Sequence record: MK327940.1
Reading direction: 5' to 3' (one strand)
DNA: 64,000 nt
Source of the DNA: Escherichia phage vB_EcoM_G29
Part shown: positions 4,600 to 39,754 of the stretch, one piece after another
How the letters are laid out: every line of letters starts with the position of its first letter
Position numbering within the stretch: position 1 is the stretch's first letter
The notes under the pieces: model-generated
What the model saw: only the letters and a program-made list of their open reading frames with translations
The model's database searches: none
Told to the model about the DNA's origin: nothing
Translations under genes and position numbers: made by a program

Positions 4600-4650
4600 A
4601 TAGTACCATGGAAGAACAGAGATGTAAACAGTTTTGTGAAAAAATTTTTA
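4600..4650 (-). promoter_or_regulatory. early sigma70-type promoter for the 4293..4556 gene
   Basis: Minus strand: AT-rich upstream element, GTTTACA (4623-4629), 17 bp, TGgTACTAT (4600-4605). Confidence 0.6.
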
Positions 4651-4752
4651 GGGAATTCTAGGGCAGGGATGGGCAATTAAAGGATAGGATAATATATTAT
4701 AAAGGGTATAAACTAAATGATGCCTAGAGAGGTCCAGAAAGGCCTAGATACC

Positions 4753-4777
4753 AAAAAGCCCTATCATTTAGATAGGG
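4753..4777 (-). terminator. Rho-independent terminator
   Basis: Hairpin ccctatc/gataggg followed by U-run on minus strand, downstream of the 4786..5187 gene. Confidence 0.6.
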
Positions 4778-4785
4778 ATTTAAAA

Positions 4786-5187
4786 TTATTTACCTAGTTT
4801 ACTTATTATAGCTTCTGCAGCAGCTTTTAGCTTAGATGCAGTGTTAATACGATTTTTAATTTCAGTATACGCATCGCCAAGAACATCAAGGCTATCAGAA
4901 TAAACACTTACACTATTGCGTTCGCTATTTGAAATAGAACCTTTAGTTTTGCGGTCAAAATCGGTGTACACGTCTTGAAGATCGCGGGCTGCCTTCTTTG
5001 CATCATCCAATGCATCAAGAGCTTTATTCAAAGCATTAACGTATTTTTTAGTGTCGAACATATTCTTAGAAATTTTAACAGGTGCGCGTTCAGGAGTAGC
5101 TAACACAGATTTAGGAACCTGAGCGCCAGATGCCAATTTCTTAGAAATTTTGAAAAATGCTTTATTGAATTTATTTTCTTGACTCAT
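4786..5187 (-). CDS. hypothetical protein
   Basis: 133 aa track ORF; start overlaps stop of the small upstream ORF (ATGA); Rho-independent terminator downstream. Confidence 0.6.
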   Translation of the reverse strand: MSQENKFNKAFFKISKKLASGAQVPKSVLATPERAPVKISKNMFDTKKYVNALNKALDALDDAKKAARDLQDVYTDFDRKTKGSISNSERNSVSVYSDSLDVLGDAYTEIKNRINTASKLKAAAEAIISKLGK

Positions 5188-5348
5188 TGTAAAAGAACAT
5201 TATCGATGTTGTACATTTCAATAGCTTTAGCTTTCCACTTAAGAAAATCGCCGCGGTCTTTTGGGTCCAATTGGAAGAATACTTTAGTAAGATCTGCTTC
5301 AGATGGTAATTTTGCTGCTTCGGTTAAAAATTCGGCATAGGTTTTCAT
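5184..5348 (-). CDS. small protein with capsid-targeting-sequence-like N-terminus (internal-protein-like)
   Basis: Hand-translated 54 aa MKTYAEFLTEAAKLPSEADLTKVFFQLDPKDRGDFLKWKAKAIEMYNIDNVLLQ; below the 60-aa track cutoff; N-terminus matches the T4 internal-protein motif MKTYQEFIAE. Confidence 0.5.
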   Translation of the reverse strand: MKTYAEFLTEAAKLPSEADLTKVFFQLDPKDRGDFLKWKAKAIEMYNIDNVLLQ

Positions 5349-5438
5349 TTAAAATCCTTGAAATAATTTATCGGTTGGTTATTAATTATTTATTACTTTG
5401 TTACTATCCGTAACAGCGTTATCCGAGTGATTCAAACT

Positions 5439-5465
5439 AAAAAGCCCCAACCTTTCGGTCGGGGC
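5439..5465 (-). terminator. Rho-independent terminator (GC hairpin plus U-run on minus strand)
   Basis: gccccaacctttcggtcggggc hairpin preceded on the plus strand by an A-run; same 31-bp element recurs at 5996-6026. Confidence 0.7.
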
Positions 5466-5473
5466 TAAGAATG

Positions 5474-5947
5474 TCATTTGATTTGTTTAGCAGACCAAAT
5501 GCGGTCTTTAATAATTTTTTGGATGTCTTCAACATACTCAAGAGAGTGAACATGTGGATTATCTTTGAAACTATAAGCACGGGCTAACTTTTGGCCTTCG
5601 GTTTTGATTACTAAAAGCTCTTTAAGGATAGCTTCATATTTAGCGATAATTCCTTTAACGATATTTTTTTCTTGTGCCGCTTTAGGATCTGCTTTAGGAG
5701 CAGGTTTACCCGAAGCCTTTGCAAAAGCAGCGCCAGTAGCAACTAAACTTTTCCAGGCCATACTAACTGCATTTCCCGTAAATCCTTCCGCTTTCATGTC
5801 GCGTGCAAACTGGAATCGCGATTCATCAGAAGCATCTTTATAGGAATATTTACCCGCGGCAATGGCAGCTTTTGCAACAGCTTGAATTTCGGTGCTAGAT
5901 GCTTCATTTAACACCGCTTCATTTAAAAATTGAGTATATGATTTCAT
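5474..5947 (-). CDS. internal head protein-like (capsid-targeting-sequence N-terminus)
   Basis: Start moved to ATG 5947 (MKSYTQFLNEAV...); TATAAATA late promoter at 5986-5993 and terminator at 5996-6022 lie inside the longer track ORF. Confidence 0.65.
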   Translation of the reverse strand: MKSYTQFLNEAVLNEASSTEIQAVAKAAIAAGKYSYKDASDESRFQFARDMKAEGFTGNAVSMAWKSLVATGAAFAKASGKPAPKADPKAAQEKNIVKGIIAKYEAILKELLVIKTEGQKLARAYSFKDNPHVHSLEYVEDIQKIIKDRIWSAKQIK

Positions 5948-5985
5948 CTTATTTCCTGTTTTAATTTGTAGATTTAATATACTAA

Positions 5986-5993
5986 TATTTATA
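5986..5993 (-). promoter_or_regulatory. T4 late promoter upstream of the internal-protein-like gene
   Basis: Plus-strand tatttata equals minus-strand TATAAATA, about 40 nt upstream of ATG 5947. Confidence 0.7.
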
Positions 5994-5995
5994 CC

Positions 5996-6022
5996 AAAAA
6001 GCCCCAACCTTTCGGTCGGGGC
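5996..6022 (-). terminator. Rho-independent terminator, second copy of the same element
   Basis: Identical hairpin and A-run; sits between the stable-RNA/tRNA region and the late promoter of the internal-protein gene. Confidence 0.7.
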
Positions 6023-6039
6023 TAAGCCTTGCGGCAACC

Positions 6040-6330
6040 TTGTCGGGGTTCCACCTGCTAAGGCAAGTGTTTGTACGAAACGCCGGGATTCGAACCCGGT
6101 TATTAAGTAGTTGACGCTACTCAATATTTTAAAAGGCCATATCTCGACCATATCCGAACGTTCCGTCAAAAACGCTACTCGGCTTACGGCAAAGATATTT
6201 CCTCGAATCGATAATTCGGTGCGCCGTTTCTGCTGTGATAGTAAAGAGCCAGAACACAGTAAAACTGTGGGAGGAAACTATACTCCAGGGAACATCAGTC
6301 CGACGACTTACCGGTAGCGACCCGGTTTCT
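6040..6330 (-). ncRNA. candidate small stable RNA(s), by analogy to T4 species 1/2 (rnaC/rnaD)
   Basis: Non-coding gap downstream of the tRNA cluster on the same strand; contains a tRNA-like T-arm (ccgggattcgaacccgg) but no complete cloverleaf. Confidence 0.25.
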
Positions 6331-6680
6331 TAATATTCTTTTAAAGAATCAATATATTCACGGCGTTTACGCCACAAATCAATTGCTTCATACGCGGATT
6401 CAGCATTTCGAATTAGCCGGCATTTATGTAAAGACTTATGATTTTGATATTGTGTAGATAACGGAATTGTATCTAAAAGGTCTTTACGATCAAAATATTC
6501 GTAACCATCTAAACCAAATGAACGATTTTTGAGAAATTGCCAATGACCATATTCGTTTTCGACATAAACATAATCTGCATGCTGATAAAGCAAATTAATT
6601 ACACGTTCAGAAATAACAGTATCATTATGATTAAAATAGAATGTTAAATCATGAACTACTAAATAAACATTACCTTTCAT
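6330..6680 (-). CDS. hypothetical protein
   Basis: 116 aa track ORF with GAGGAAA ribosome-binding site, immediately downstream of tRNA-Arg. Confidence 0.55.
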   Translation of the reverse strand: MKGNVYLVVHDLTFYFNHNDTVISERVINLLYQHADYVYVENEYGHWQFLKNRSFGLDGYEYFDRKDLLDTIPLSTQYQNHKSLHKCRLIRNAESAYEAIDLWRKRREYIDSLKEY

Positions 6681-6698
6681 ATTTTCCTCACTTATAAT

Positions 6699-6774
6699 TG
6701 GTCGAGGCAGTAGGGATCGAACCTACGACCTAGGACTTAGAAGGTCCTTGCTCTTCCTTCTGAGCTATGCCCCG
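6699..6774 (-). tRNA. tRNA-Arg (anticodon UCU)
   Basis: Cloverleaf folded by hand; anticodon loop cuUCUaa; T-loop TTCGATC; encoded CCA. Confidence 0.85.
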
Positions 6775-6778
6775 TAAT

Positions 6779-6854
6779 TGGGGTGACCGATGGGAGTCGA
6801 ACCCATGACTACGAGAATCACAATCTCGAGTTCTACCAACTGAACTACGGCCAC
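6779..6854 (-). tRNA. tRNA-His (anticodon GUG)
   Basis: Hand fold; anticodon stem cgaga/tctcg, loop uuGUGau; discriminator C73; no encoded G-1. Confidence 0.75.
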
Positions 6855-6968
6855 ATTAATACCTACTCCAACAATCAAGATGTCTTCACACGAAATTAAG
6901 AGAAGAGTGATCAGTTCAACCCCTATAATCGCGTCAAGTAGATATTAATGTGACAGTTGTCACAAATT

Positions 6969-7043
6969 TGGCGGACGTGATAGGATTCGAACCTATAACC
7001 AATCGCTTAACAGGCGATCGCTCTGCCATTGAGCTACACATCC
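6969..7043 (-). tRNA. tRNA-Asn (anticodon GUU)
   Basis: Hand fold; anticodon stem atcgc/gcgat, loop cuGUUaa; encoded CCA. Confidence 0.8.
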
Positions 7044-7047
7044 AAAT

Positions 7048-7134
7048 TGGTGGGGAGTGGTGGAGTCGAACCACCCGAGTCGCAATGACAATGGATTTAC
7101 AGTCCACACCGCTACCTCTACGGGATAACTCCCC
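7048..7134 (-). tRNA. tRNA-Tyr (anticodon GUA), long variable arm
   Basis: Hand fold; 87 nt; anticodon loop cuGUAaa; encoded CCA. Confidence 0.75.
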
Positions 7135-7143
7135 AAATTAATT

Positions 7144-7218
7144 TGGTGGCCCTGGGTGGAATTGAACCACCATCTGGCGATTATGAGTCGCTTGCTTGAA
7201 CCTTCCAGCTACAGGGCC
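7144..7218 (-). tRNA. tRNA with CAU anticodon (elongator Met or lysidine-modified Ile)
   Basis: Hand fold; anticodon loop cuCAUaa; T-stem ggtgg/ccacc; position matches the T4 tRNA-Ile slot. Confidence 0.75.
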
Positions 7219-7219
7219 T

Positions 7220-7295
7220 TGGTGCTGATTGACGGAATCGAACCGCCGACCTTCTCATTACAAGTGAGTTGCTCTACCTACTGAGCTAAATCAGC
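7220..7295 (-). tRNA. tRNA-Thr (anticodon UGU)
   Basis: Hand fold; anticodon loop cuUGUaa; encoded CCA. Confidence 0.85.
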
Positions 7296-7300
7296 AAAAC

Positions 7301-7390
7301 TGGCGGAGGCGATAGGATTTGAACCTATGAGTCGCCGGAGCGACTGCCGGTTTTCAAGACCGGTGCATTAAACCACTCTGCCACGCCTCC
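7301..7390 (-). tRNA. tRNA-Ser (anticodon UGA), long variable arm
   Basis: Hand fold; 90 nt; anticodon stem ccggt/accgg, loop cuUGAaa. Confidence 0.85.
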
Positions 7391-7392
7391 AG

Positions 7393-7466
7393 TCTCCGTG
7401 GCAGGATTTGAACCTACGACATTCTGCTCCCAAAGCAGACGCTCTACCAAACTGAGCTACACGGAG
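7393..7466 (-). tRNA. tRNA-Pro (anticodon UGG), CCA not encoded
   Basis: Hand fold; anticodon loop uuUGGga; 3' end abuts the tRNA-Ser 5' end, as in the T4 Pro-Ser dimeric precursor. Confidence 0.85.
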
Positions 7467-7476
7467 TAAATTAAAT

Positions 7477-7550
<74 letters not shown>

Positions 7551-7555
7551 AAATT

Positions 7556-7642
7556 TGGTGCGAGAAGTGGGACTCGAACCCACAAGGAAATCATTCCGCA
7601 GCATTTTAAGTGCTGTGCCTTTACCAATTTGGCCATTCTCGC
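7556..7642 (-). tRNA. tRNA-Leu (anticodon UAA), long variable arm
   Basis: Hand fold; anticodon stem cagca/tgctg, loop cuUAAaa. Confidence 0.85.
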
Positions 7643-7643
7643 G

Positions 7644-7716
7644 CTGGGAATAAAGGACTCGAACCTTTGCATCCTGGAATCAAAATCCAGTGCCTTACCA
7701 ACTTGGCTAATTCCCA
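7644..7716 (-). tRNA. tRNA-Gln (anticodon UUG), CCA not encoded
   Basis: Hand fold; anticodon stem ctgga/tccag, loop uuUUGau; one nucleotide from the tRNA-Leu 5' end (Gln-Leu dimer). Confidence 0.85.
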
Positions 7717-7813
7717 ATTATTAACAAAGGCTCTTAAGCAAGAACCCTTGATGATAGAGGGTATTAATCAGTGCGATATGAGTTAATAATAACAAATAAT
7801 TCTTAAAGCATAT

Positions 7814-8101
7814 TTACCATTTATAATAATACATATTTACGATGCATTCAAGACCCAAAGGATTCTTGAAAATATCATATTCAAGAGGACCTTTTTCTGT
7901 TTCAATAAAGAAATCAAAATTTACTGTATTAAATTTACGTTCTTCCTTCACTAATTTAACTTGAGAAGATGAACGGTCAATGTAAACCTTTTCAACTTCA
8001 AAACATGTTAAAATGCCATAATCATCAATCAAAGCTTTAGCCGCGTCTTGATCATATTTATATCCATTTTCAATGGATGATACTTTCGCATAAAGAATCA
8101 T
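7814..8101 (-). CDS. hypothetical protein
   Basis: 95 aa track ORF in the operon upstream of the tRNA cluster. Confidence 0.55.
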   Translation of the reverse strand: MILYAKVSSIENGYKYDQDAAKALIDDYGILTCFEVEKVYIDRSSSQVKLVKEERKFNTVNFDFFIETEKGPLEYDIFKNPLGLECIVNMYYYKW

Positions 8102-8103
8102 TA

Positions 8104-8502
8104 TCAGCCTTCATCAACAATAGTGTGAGTATTAGCATTTACGATTTGCCACCAATCAAAGCGATTAGAATCCATCGGTTTGTTTTCATTTTCTTTGATA
8201 ATGTCACGGAGTTCATCTTCAGAGAATGCTTTAGCGATTAAATCGGTATACCCACCACGTGGATAATAATTATCACCTGCAAACAAAAGGAAATTTACCT
8301 TCCCGGAAGGAACATACGCTTCCTTAGGATACTTGTTTCCTGCGTGGTCAACCACTTCAATATAACGGTAAGGAATATCGGTTCTTTCAACCCATTGCCA
8401 TGCCGCCGCAGGGGAATCGAAAGCATCTACACCTAAACGATTATCTTCATCTTTAGACGGATTATTTTCGTAATCCGCATATACATAATATTCAACGTTC
8501 AT
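8104..8502 (-). CDS. hypothetical protein
   Basis: 132 aa track ORF; stop abuts the next start. Confidence 0.55.
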   Translation of the reverse strand: MNVEYYVYADYENNPSKDEDNRLGVDAFDSPAAAWQWVERTDIPYRYIEVVDHAGNKYPKEAYVPSGKVNFLLFAGDNYYPRGGYTDLIAKAFSEDELRDIIKENENKPMDSNRFDWWQIVNANTHTIVDEG

Positions 8503-8687
8503 TATTCACCTTTAGAAATTTTATCCATAACAATAGCAATTAAACCAATTAAAAATGCTACTACAAGTGAAAAAACATTTTCTGCCGTAGTCAATAATCC
8601 GCATATAAATCCAACAAACATTGAAAAACTGAAAGCGGAAGCAGAAATTGCAATAGCAACATTTCGAATTAATTCACAACGTTTCAT
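8502..8687 (-). CDS. hypothetical small membrane protein
   Basis: 61 aa, mostly hydrophobic; GAGGAG ribosome-binding site; early promoter with inverted repeat upstream. Confidence 0.5.
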   Translation of the reverse strand: MKRCELIRNVAIAISASAFSFSMFVGFICGLLTTAENVFSLVVAFLIGLIAIVMDKISKGE

Positions 8688-8706
8688 TTTATTCTCCTCA
8701 GTAGTA

Positions 8707-8745
8707 GATAGGGTAATAGTATCACTACCCTATCTAAAAGTAAAC
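8707..8745 (-). promoter_or_regulatory. early sigma70-type promoter with inverted repeat bracketing the -10 (PeSL-like cassette)
   Basis: Minus strand: GTTTAC, about 17-18 bp, TGaTACTAT; inverted repeat gatagggta/taccctatc at 8707-8715 and 8726-8734. Confidence 0.6.
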
Positions 8746-8979
8746 TTATTTTTTACGAAAAATTGATTTATTTTCTGCTGCCCATTTTTCAATAACTGCA
8801 GCAGGACCAGTAACAACAATTTTATCACCGTAATCTTCTGCGGCGAGTTGACCGAAATTATCTAATGCATCACGAAGAACTCCATGAGGCATTTCACCCA
8901 TTTTATCTTTCTTGCCAGTGTAAATAAACTCAACTTTTACATCAGCAGTTTCAGCAATAAATTCTTGGTAAGTTTTCAT
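8746..8979 (-). CDS. internal head protein-like (capsid-targeting sequence MKTYQEFIAE)
   Basis: Start placed at the ATG giving MKTYQEFIAETADV... (77 aa); exact match to the T4 internal-protein targeting motif. Confidence 0.7.
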   Translation of the reverse strand: MKTYQEFIAETADVKVEFIYTGKKDKMGEMPHGVLRDALDNFGQLAAEDYGDKIVVTGPAAVIEKWAAENKSIFRKK

Positions 8980-9005
8980 TTTGATTTCCATTTGGTTTTG
9001 TTTTG

Positions 9006-9050
9006 ATAGGGTAATAGTATCACAACTAAAACCCTATGTAAACAACTTTG
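9006..9050 (-). promoter_or_regulatory. early promoter with inverted repeat (PeSL-like cassette)
   Basis: Minus strand: TTTACA (9037-9042), 17 bp, TACTAT (9014-9019) with TGa; inverted repeat atagggt/accctat. Confidence 0.6.
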
Positions 9051-9055
9051 TGAAA

Positions 9056-9313
9056 TTATTTTAAATCTTCTAATCGTTTCTTCATCTTAGAACCATTTTT
9101 AGCAATTTCTCCTGCATCGGAGCATAATGCTAAAAGTGCTTTAACTTTAGTTTGGTCTCCTTTAAAAGATGAAGGATCGACCGCAGCAGCAAGTTCTTTA
9201 ATACGAGAGAAAAGACGCTCAGCTTCAGCTAAAGCCATTCCAAGCTTTACTTCCATACCGTGGGAAGATTCAGTGATAGTAGTTTTTGTAGCAAACTCTT
9301 TGAAAGTTTTCAT
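9056..9313 (-). CDS. internal head protein-like (MKTFKEFATK N-terminus)
   Basis: 85 aa track ORF; N-terminus resembles the capsid-targeting sequence; ipI-equivalent position beside 57B. Confidence 0.6.
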   Translation of the reverse strand: MKTFKEFATKTTITESSHGMEVKLGMALAEAERLFSRIKELAAAVDPSSFKGDQTKVKALLALCSDAGEIAKNGSKMKKRLEDLK

Positions 9314-9335
9314 TTTTATTTTCCTAATTAATTTT

Positions 9336-9380
9336 GATGAGGTAATAGTATCACTACCTCATCAGTATGTAAACAACTTT
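9336..9380 (-). promoter_or_regulatory. early promoter with inverted repeat (PeSL-like cassette)
   Basis: Minus strand: TTTACA (9368-9373), 17 bp, TACTAT (9345-9350); inverted repeat gatgaggta/tacctcatc with paired changes relative to the 8707 copy. Confidence 0.6.
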
Positions 9381-9386
9381 GTGAAA

Positions 9387-10071
<685 letters not shown>

Positions 10072-10072
<1 letters not shown>

Positions 10073-10797
10073 TATAGTACCTTTAGCGTATTTTTAATTT
10101 TAGAAAAAAGTTCTTCAAGAGAACCATCGTTTGTAATTACTAAATCGCCATCACGAATTGGCAATCCAGCTTCTGTAATATGTGTATCATTGGATTTTTG
10201 ACCAGGACGAACTACATGAATTACTGTAGCACCCATCGCCCTAGCCGCATCCATTTCATGATCTTGACGGGTATCAGGAACGATATAATAATCATAACCT
10301 GAGTTAAATTTATCAAGATAATCTAAAGCAAATAATTTTATCCAGTACATGCGGTCGAAGTTATTAACAATCAAATCCGTACCTAGGGCTTGCATCAGAC
10401 GACGGACTGACCATTGATCTTCAATATTATTTATAACGTCAATAATCTTGTTAAATGCTACGGAATTAACTGATTCTTGTCCTTCGTCATCAAAAACAAA
10501 CACACCTTTAATTGGGCTTTTACCATTAAGATAGCAAAATGCTTGTTCCATAATCGTGATTACTTCTAATTTAGTTAGATTTAAATTAGTCTCACGATCA
10601 TAGTCAATTCCTTCAAACTCTTTACGAGTTAAGCAAGGATAGTCGGTATTTGCTGCAAATACTCCCCATGCATAAGCCAATGCATCCTTAATAGGACCAG
10701 CAAGTTGGTATTTAACTGCAGAATAATTGCTCATGATAAAATCAGCAGTAGTATCTTTTCCACTACGCTTTACACCGCTTAAAAAGATTAGTTTCAT
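10072..10797 (-). CDS. 1: deoxynucleoside monophosphate kinase
   Basis: 241 aa; P-loop GVKRSGKDT; T4 gene 1 length and synteny. Confidence 0.92.
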
Positions 10798-37851: not shown

Positions 37852-38276
37852 TGCTTCTGATCCCTGAAACTCATGAATTAGTTCTCGAGAATGTCGAAGC
37901 ACTTATTCCTGAAGCACAGGGTCGCTTTGACGAATTGTCTTCTGCTTTAAATAAAGACGATATAAATACAATTGTCGAGAATATGCTTGATGATGAAACT
38001 GATTTAGCGGTTGCATTAGCTTCTATTAATGAAAATATGCCGTTAAATGAATTTATCGTTAAACATGTTTCTGCCCGTGGTGAAATTACTCGCACTAAAG
38101 ATCGCAAAACCCGCGAACGTAATGCATTTCAAACTACCGGGTTGTCTAAAGCAAAACGTAGACAAATTGCTCGTAAAGCTACCAAAACGAAGATTGCCAA
38201 TCCAGCAGGTCAATCTCGTGCTCAGCGTAAGCGTAAAAAAGCTCTTAAACGCCGTAAAGCATTAGGATTAAGCTAA
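37851..38276 (+). CDS. 68: prohead core protein gp68
   Basis: 141 aa; synteny. Confidence 0.88.
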
Positions 38277-38914
38277 TGAATGAACCCCAATTACTAATTG
38301 AAACTTGGGGTCAACCTGGCGAAATTATTGATGGCGTACCAATGCTTGAATCTCATGATGGAAAAGACTTAGGTTTAAAACCGGGTTTATACATCGAAGG
38401 AATATTCATGCAAGCGGAAGTCGTCAATAGAAATAAACGTCTTTATCCAAAACGTATATTAGAAAAAGCGGTAAAAGACTATATTAATGAGCAAGTTTTA
38501 ACTAAACAAGCTCTCGGAGAATTAAATCATCCTCCACGCGCTAATGTTGACCCGATGCAAGCCGCTATCATTATAGAAGATATGTGGTGGAAAGGAAATG
38601 ACGTATACGGACGAGCTCGTGTTATTGAAGGTGACCACGGTCCTGGAGATAAATTAGCAGCTAATATTCGTGCCGGATGGATTCCAGGAGTTTCTTCTCG
38701 TGGATTAGGTTCATTGACTGACACAAATAAAGGTTATCGTATCGTAAACGAAGGATTCAAATTAACTGTAGGTGTTGATGCAGTATGGGGTCCAAGTGCT
38801 CCAGATGCATGGGTAACTCCTAAGGAAATTACCGAATCACAGACGGCGGAAGCCGATACAAGTGCCGATGACGCCTATATGGCTCTCGCAGAGGCCATGA
38901 AAAAAGCGTTATAA
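38276..38914 (+). CDS. 21: prohead core protease gp21
   Basis: 212 aa; synteny. Confidence 0.93.
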   Translation: MNEPQLLIETWGQPGEIIDGVPMLESHDGKDLGLKPGLYIEGIFMQAEVVNRNKRLYPKRILEKAVKDYINEQVLTKQALGELNHPPRANVDPMQAAIIIEDMWWKGNDVYGRARVIEGDHGPGDKLAANIRAGWIPGVSSRGLGSLTDTNKGYRIVNEGFKLTVGVDAVWGPSAPDAWVTPKEITESQTAEADTSADDAYMALAEAMKKAL

Positions 38915-38944: not shown

Positions 38945-39754
38945 ATGCTTAAAGAACAACTGATTGCCGAAGCGCAGAAAATTGATGCTTCCGTTGCTCT
39001 TGATAGTATTTTCGAATCAGTTAATATTTCTCCGGAAGCAAAAGAAACTTTCGGCACTGTATTCGAAGCTACCGTCAAGCAGCACGCCGTTAAATTAGCT
39101 GAATCTCATATCGCTAAAATTGCTGAAAAAGCAGAAGAAGAAGTAGAAAAAAATAAAGAAGAAGCAGAAGAAAAAGCTGAGAAGAAAATCGCTGAGCAAG
39201 CTTCTAAATTCCTTGACCATCTTGCAAAAGAATGGCTCACTGAAAATAAATTAGCAGTAGATAAAGGTATCAAAGCCGAACTGTTTGAATCCATGCTTGG
39301 TGGATTGAAAGAGCTCTTCGTTGAACACAACGTTGTTGTTCCAGAAGAATCAGTTGATGTTGTAGCTGAAATGGAAGAAGAACTGCAAGAACATAAAGAA
39401 GAATCAGCTCGTCTGTTCGAAGAACTCAATAAGCGTGACGCATATATCAATTATGTGCAGCGTGAAGTGGCATTGAGCGAAAGTACTAAAGATCTGACTG
39501 AGTCTCAAAAAGAAAAAGTCTCTGCTCTGGTCGAAGGTATGGATTATTCAGATGCATTCTCAAGTAAATTGAGTGCAATCGTAGAAATGGTGAAGAAATC
39601 TAATAAAGATGAAAGCACTATTACTGAGAGTATAAATACTCCTGATACTGAAGCAGCCGGACTGAATTTCGTCACTGAAGCTGTAGAAGATAAATCTGCA
39701 CAAGGTGCAGAAGATATTGTAAGTGTATATGCGAAAGTCGCATCTCGTTTCTAA
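38945..39754 (+). CDS. 22: prohead core scaffold protein gp22
   Basis: 269 aa, highly charged. Confidence 0.93.
   Translation: MLKEQLIAEAQKIDASVALDSIFESVNISPEAKETFGTVFEATVKQHAVKLAESHIAKIAEKAEEEVEKNKEEAEEKAEKKIAEQASKFLDHLAKEWLTENKLAVDKGIKAELFESMLGGLKELFVEHNVVVPEESVDVVAEMEEELQEHKEESARLFEELNKRDAYINYVQREVALSESTKDLTESQKEKVSALVEGMDYSDAFSSKLSAIVEMVKKSNKDESTITESINTPDTEAAGLNFVTEAVEDKSAQGAEDIVSVYAKVASRF

Follow-up and report, generated by a model that had tools for sequence, protein, structure and literature searches.

We analyzed a 64,000-nucleotide segment of the genome of the Tequatrovirus (T4-like) Escherichia phage vB_EcoM_G29 (MK327940.1), hereafter the window. On its minus strand, the gene order runs from gene 1 (dNMP kinase) through 57A, 57B, ip5, ip6, trna.4, trna.3, and trna.2 to eleven tRNA genes (Table 1). 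In T4, a single gene, ipI, fills the slot between 57B and trna.4, and the site of ip5 and ip6 is thus the classical ipI locus, in line with an earlier note, made from the sequence alone, that had proposed an internal-protein locus of a T4-like phage here. Because the adjoining gene 57B is Acb1, a verified anti-defense gene, the internal-protein (IP) locus lies in an anti-defense neighborhood; in many phage records, this clear Acb1 homologue is still labeled "RNA ligase". The window also encodes the capsid protein gp23 and the portal protein gp20.

Table 1. The ip5-ip6 locus, its flanks, and head-assembly genes of the same phage (positions are those of the window)
Feature	Position	Strand	Description	Basis
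gene 57B, upstream flank	9387-9845	minus	Acb1 anti-CBASS phosphodiesterase homologue; position as in T4	Pfam PF23474, 2.7e-60
57B-to-ip5 cassette	9314-9389	minus	predicted T4-type early promoter (-35 GTTTACA, -10 TACTAT, 9373 to 9345); 13-bp hairpin 9335-9364, overlapping the -10, -17.4 kcal/mol; SD AGGAAA	
ip5	9056-9313	minus	85 aa, starts MKTFKEFATKTTITESSHG	ORF call
ip5 leader	codons 1-15, 9269-9313	minus	MKTFKEFATKTTITE	
predicted mature Ip5	9059-9268	minus	70 aa, 7.5 kDa, pI 9.2	
ip5-to-ip6 cassette	8980-9055	minus	same promoter motif, 9042 to 9014; hairpin 9006-9037; SD GGAAA	
ip6	8746-8979	minus	77 aa, starts MKTYQEFIAETADVK	ORF call and phrog_8111 match
ip6 leader	codons 1-10, 8950-8979	minus	MKTYQEFIAE	
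predicted mature Ip6	8749-8949	minus	67 aa, 7.4 kDa, pI 6.5	
ip6-to-trna.4 cassette	8688-8745	minus	third, more diverged copy, 61% to the reference copy; 14-bp hairpin 8705-8736, -19.8 kcal/mol	
trna.4 homologue, downstream flank	8502-8687	minus	61 aa, hydrophobic; Trna.4 in fFiEco06	phrog_1692, 6e-35
gp21 prohead protease	38276-38914	plus		Pfam Peptidase_S77, 1.5e-111
gp22 scaffolding core protein	38945-39754	plus		Pfam T4_CASP, 5.2e-90

By sequence, the two small genes encode internal head proteins that already have names in T4-like phages, Ip5 and Ip6. Ip5 is identical to Ip5 of phage RB15 (CAA84462; 100% amino acid identity over 85 residues), which likewise carries this leader and is encoded by the first gene after 57B, and it matches phrog_3499 over its full length (positions 1-85, 1.2e-49). 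Similarly, Ip6 matches phrog_8111, "internal virion protein", from end to end (positions 1-77, 1.2e-52), and the corresponding protein is annotated as ip6 or ipVI in phages fFiEco06, VR7, PST, and GiZh. These Ip6/IpVI proteins are 78-100% identical to that of the window, with the same leader and the same locus, and show no difference of substance. The pair therefore cannot be regarded as the unplaced, novel candidates that the earlier note had taken them for. The genes, their leaders, the plasticity of the locus, and the anti-defense hypothesis have all been published, and no new object is described here. Polymorphic ip genes, Ip5 and Ip6 among them, and their leader reportedly go back to Repoila et al. 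(1994), whom later papers name as the source. Arbiol et al. (2010) speak of "more than 30 known variants" of ip genes (PMC2839356).

The ORF starts MKTYQEFIAE and MKTFKEFATK were found where they had been read before, both on the minus strand. For ip6, the mechanical ORF begins four codons earlier, at the ATG at 8991, and gives an 81-aa protein with the prefix MEIK-. Public annotations of ip6 differ on the start, listing either 81 aa (MEIKMKTYQ…) or 77 aa (MKTYQ…). A GGAAA Shine-Dalgarno (SD) sequence lies 8-9 nt 5' of the ATG at 8979, a placement also seen in ip5 (AGGAAAATAAAAATG), and reading the sequence upstream of the ATG at 8991 revealed none. Since the SD is present only at 8979 and is placed as in ip5, we consider the 77-aa start the better one; of the two starts, only this form puts the capsid-targeting sequence (CTS) at the N-terminus.

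Two Escherichia phages, vB_EcoM_G4500 and AV121, carry DNA 100% identical to positions 8500-9900, and matches to some or all of this stretch were found in 772 phage records. Among 50,697 phage records, the Ip5 family was found in 496 (T2 among the carriers), Ip6 in 245, and the ip5-ip6 junction itself in 162. In word-indexed homologue searches, Ip6 gave 11 matches and Ip5 gave 5, and none led beyond T4-like phages. An exhaustive HMMER search with an Ip6 profile against 1.84 billion representatives yielded seven matches, five of which were genuine phage relatives or fragments (the full-length ones bearing the CTS) and two spurious repeat proteins. As far as the sequences tell, the Ip5 and Ip6 families are restricted to T4-like phages and are fast-evolving behind a fixed leader.

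The leaders connect these proteins to the internal proteins of T4. Translating the window in six frames gives three instances of MKT[YF]xEF, compared with 0.005 expected from 200 shuffles, each of them at the start of an ORF and all on one strand. The N-terminal 10 residues of T4 IPIII are enough to bring foreign proteins into the head; within the CTS, residues 4 and 7 serve targeting and residues 8 and 10 processing, the motif of the gp21 protease being L/I-x-E (PMC9026906). The Ip6 leader agrees with the decapeptide CTS of T4 IPII and IPIII at 10 of 10 residues, MKTFKEF of Ip5 equals the first seven residues of T4 IPI, and both proteins have the targeting residues at positions 4 and 7. The claim of capsid-targeting leaders on both thus held, with Ip6 bearing the IPII/IPIII decapeptide and Ip5 a leader of the IPI type.

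The gp21 motif closes both leaders, as I8-A9-E10 in Ip6 and as I13-T14-E15 in Ip5. The leader of T4 IPI (MKTFKEFTSTTTPVSTITE, followed by A) has no site at residue 10 and runs to ITE19, where cleavage gives the published 76-residue IPI* (PMC3012670). In five Ip5 homologues, I13-T14-E15 and all downstream residues are invariant and the preceding residues vary, and one Ip5 homologue has a plain 10-mer leader, MQTYQTFITE. Because the ITE is invariant, because IPI is cut at ITE19, and because the homologue's 10-mer ends in ITE, Ip5 is likely cleaved after Glu15, and not at residue 10 as expected when MKTFKEFATK was taken for a decapeptide CTS. The same phage encodes the cognate prohead protease gp21 and the scaffold gp22.

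CTS-like starts are also present elsewhere in the window. A 157-aa ORF (5474-5947, minus strand) starts MKSYTQFLNEAVLNE, with L-N-E at residues 8-10 and 13-15, and its entire length matches phrog_2280 ("unknown function"; 2.3e-60). The ORF is located between e.8 and the tRNA cluster, in the region that holds rnaC and rnaD in T4; it has the T4 late-promoter motif TATAAATA upstream at ~5993 and, on its flanks, GC-rich hairpins followed by T-runs. Packaged proteins may thus have a third locus here, expressed late and unannotated as IP. Two further minus-strand ORFs, joined by an ATGA overlap, match phrog_2280 in succession: a 54-aa ORF with the CTS-like start MKTYAEFLTE… (5184-5348; positions 1-52) and a 133-aa ORF (4786-5187; positions 59-178). 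Taken together, they resemble the two parts of another phrog_2280 paralogue, and the break could reflect a frameshifted pseudogene, a split gene, or a site of recoding. A 116-aa ORF (6330-6680, minus strand; phrog_3355, unknown function) sits between a tRNA-Arg gene and the rnaC/rnaD-like region and marks another variable slot, since T4 and fFiEco06 lack it in the equivalent region. At 6073-6166 on the minus strand, outside the main tRNA cluster, ARAGORN called a 94-nt tRNA-Lys(ttt) where T4 has the stable RNAs rnaC and rnaD. Rfam reported no tRNA at this position at E ≤ 0.1, and the RNA may be a tRNA-like stable RNA instead of a true tRNA.

The motif GTTTACA-17 nt-TACTAT, with a TG before it, stands ahead of both ip genes. 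It belongs to a cassette of ~71 nt (repeat family D1) that occurs three times (8703-8773, 9001-9071, and 9332-9402) and brackets each gene; the cassette hairpins span 13-14 bp, have energies of -17 to -20 kcal/mol, and overlap the -10 element. The 76-nt spacer from 57B to ip5 is base for base that of T4 between 57B and ipI (100%), and the ip5-to-ip6 cassette is similar to the T4 ipI-to-trna.4 spacer. T4 IPI has in common with Ip5 the locus, the 76-nt upstream region, the MKTFKEF start, and an ITE site. A generic sigma-70 scan was overall not above chance (9 sites versus 8.9 expected), so the early-promoter status rests on the repeat and on the identity with T4. On these grounds, the early promoters that the earlier note had assigned to the two genes are retained as predicted T4-type promoters.

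We do not call the cassette hairpins terminators, because an intrinsic terminator scan of 7700-10100 found none. Similarly, an Rfam search of 4600-10200 at a permissive threshold returned only tRNAs and no family for the hairpin cassettes. The late-promoter motif TATAAATA does not occur directly upstream of ip5 or ip6, the nearest on the minus strand being at 10435; we assume that the proteins are supplied at the time of prohead assembly in the same way as the product of T4 ipI, a gene with the identical upstream region. The cassettes resemble the PeSL cassettes of phages RB49 and phi1, in which an early promoter and a stem-loop are likewise repeated beside small accessory genes and which have been proposed as a recombination substrate for gene swapping (PMC2839356). 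The T-even IP-locus elements are considered analogues of PeSL, not homologues (Arbiol et al. 2010, PMC2839356); unlike PeSL, they are of the T4 early-promoter type and have AT-richer stems without polyG/polyC (PMC2839356).

The slot next to 57B varied considerably among close relatives, as had been claimed when the locus was called hyperplastic. T4 carries ipI alone, RB15 carries ip5-ip9-ip7-ip8, T2 carries ip5-ip7, and the window carries ip5-ip6; thus, Ip5 is followed by a different gene in each of its three arrays. In slur07 and pSe_SNUABM_01, an ip6 variant directly follows 57B, without ip5. Ip5 of T2 is 98.8% identical to that of the window. A distant, Mosigvirus-type form of Ip5 was found in 228 records. 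In Mosigvirus O157 typing phage 6 (L005; locus 1501-1782), an Ip5 relative with 48% identity lies between e and denV, its start overlapping the end of the lysozyme gene e. Because this relative sits at the T4 ipIII/ipII position, we infer that the Ip5 family has moved between two IP loci and between genera. The cassettes and the common leader codons would provide homology patches for exchanging ip genes among phages and from one IP locus to the other.

Behind the leaders, the resemblance to characterized proteins ends. A Pfam scan assigned no family to Ip5 or Ip6, and a PDB sequence search gave nothing for Ip6 and only noise for Ip5 (E > 0.7). In blastp comparisons, the mature bodies matched none of the other internal proteins of T4, RB15, and T2, and the T4 IPI body is unrelated in sequence to both (E > 0.3). 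The mature sizes are similar, with 76 aa in IPI*, 70 aa in Ip5, and 67 aa in Ip6. IPI* has a pair of β-sheets between its N-terminal and C-terminal helices (PMC3012670), whereas Ip6 is predicted to form a ferredoxin-like β-α-β-β-α-β domain (pLDDT 82) and Ip5 an all-helical two-helix hairpin, at modest confidence (pLDDT 71), that matches only designed hairpins and similar structures. Mature Ip5 is basic with a lysine-rich C-terminus; Ip6 is near-neutral, unlike the basic T4 IPs. We considered Ip5 as a diverged IPI and rejected this, as only the leader and the promoter are common to both. By sequence or fold of the body, neither protein resembles the GmrSD inhibitors IPI*, Ip2, and Ip3. Clear homology to known internal proteins whose function is established had been named beforehand as an outcome that would refute the earlier reading; the homology is clear, and the established function is lacking.

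What is known of function comes from T4. T4 IPI inhibits GmrSD-CT596, and IPII (Ip2) and IPIII (Ip3) inhibit GmrSD-ECOR21 and GmrSD-ECOR17. The latter two carry the same decapeptide CTS as Ip6 and follow the same logic of packaging, cleavage, and injection; they differ in their locus between e and denV, in their unrelated bodies, and in their larger mature size (90 and 183 aa). Silas et al. (2025) reported that Ip1, Ip2, and Ip3 of T4 each inhibit one distinct GmrSD, without cross-protection (PMC12373910). The literature examined yielded no report of virion proteomics or injection for Ip5 or Ip6: the fPS-65/fPS-90 paper contains no virion proteomics, and the Durham collection and Phage DisCo papers do not mention either protein. 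By analogy with T4, both are very likely packed in the capsid and injected with the DNA, and an injected anti-defense effector, as suggested before, appears to be the most reasonable function. This hypothesis for internal proteins is already in print (PMC3012670, PMC12373910).

Our preferred reading, to which we assign a probability of roughly 0.6, is that ip5 and ip6 belong to the polymorphic set of the ipI locus and encode packaged, gp21-cut, and injected inhibitors of specific nucleases, with the cassettes mediating swaps. Following T4, each ip gene would be transcribed from its own T4-type early promoter, and the precursor would be bound, through its N-terminal CTS, to the gp22 core that scaffolds the prohead. 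There, gp21 would cut after L/I-x-E, that is, after IAE10 in Ip6 and after ITE15 in Ip5. The mature proteins of ~7.5 kDa would remain in the head with the DNA, be ejected together with it into the next host, and so act ahead of any phage gene expression. By analogy, each Ip would act stoichiometrically, inhibiting a single specific host nuclease directed against glucosyl-hmC DNA.

The published screen bears on the identity of that nuclease. No reproducible inhibition of GmrSD variants was observed for ip4-10 (PMC12373910, Supplementary Fig. 9). The screen sampled 15 GmrSD groups; eight of its systems acted against T-even phages, a count that includes the three known targets (PMC12373910). T2, which carries Ip5 and Ip7, is restricted by GmrSD-ECOR21 and GmrSD-ECOR17 (PMC12373910), and hence Ip5 does not neutralize these two at its natural dose. 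Since GmrSD diversity is very large and just 15 groups were sampled, the negative result for ip4-10 is weak evidence, and the target of Ip5 and Ip6 is, by analogy, probably a GmrSD-family type IV enzyme of a subtype outside those screened. Going further, Ip5, Ip6, or both might counter a defense not yet linked to T-even IPs, be it an unsampled GmrSD clade beyond the 15 groups or a non-GmrSD sensor of incoming glucosyl-hmC DNA; the ferredoxin-like domain (67 aa) and the helical hairpin (70 aa) would then be new minimal inhibitor folds. We offer this tentatively, at somewhat less than even odds.

Three alternatives were weighed against specific GmrSD-type inhibition. In the first, which we hold to be unlikely, one or both proteins inhibit a defense other than GmrSD, such as a modification-dependent nuclease, a sensor of DNA ends or entry, or an abortive-infection trigger that is disarmed before transcription. 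The lack of inhibition by ip4-10 in the screen (PMC12373910) is consistent with this, as are the near-neutral Ip6 (pI 6.5, unlike the basic T4 IPs), bodies unrelated to IPI, IPII, and IPIII, and a locus that adjoins the Acb1 anti-CBASS gene; however, all three characterized T-even IPs hit GmrSD enzymes, and no positive evidence points to any other system. The second alternative, less probable still, is that Ip5 and Ip6 are mainly structural cargo, filling the head or associating with the DNA and aiding charge balance, packaging, or ejection without a specific target in the host. T4 heads hold ~1000 IP molecules within the DNA, IP lysines touch DNA phosphates (PMC3012670), and mature Ip5, with its pI of 9.2 and lysine-rich C-terminus, would suit such a role. 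Ip6, however, is not basic, and T4 Ip1-3, formerly thought structural, all turned out to be specific inhibitors. Moreover, the proteins are dispensable and freely swapped among close relatives, a pattern that an arms race fits better than a structural need. The third, that one protein (Ip5, given its atypical leader, would be the likelier) is left unpackaged and acts as an ordinary early cytoplasmic protein, is highly improbable: the Ip5 leader does lack Glu10, having A8 and K10 at the expected processing residues, and the promoters immediately upstream are of the early type only, but T4 IPI has the same MKTFKEF, also lacks a residue-10 site, and is nevertheless packaged and cut at ITE19, the ITE of Ip5 is invariant while the residues ahead of it vary, and the promoter region is that of T4 ipI.

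Injected proteins act before phage gene expression and thereby decide whether a T4-like phage survives its first seconds in a wild strain. Ip5 and Ip6 are among the most widespread of the orphan IPs, being carried by T2 and by many phage-therapy isolates. Should the more tentative proposal of a defense not yet linked to T-even IPs be true, the ip5-ip6 pair (~160 phages) would mark a host-range determinant for therapeutic T4-like phages. The targets of Ip5 and Ip6, once found, would extend the phage-host specificity map.
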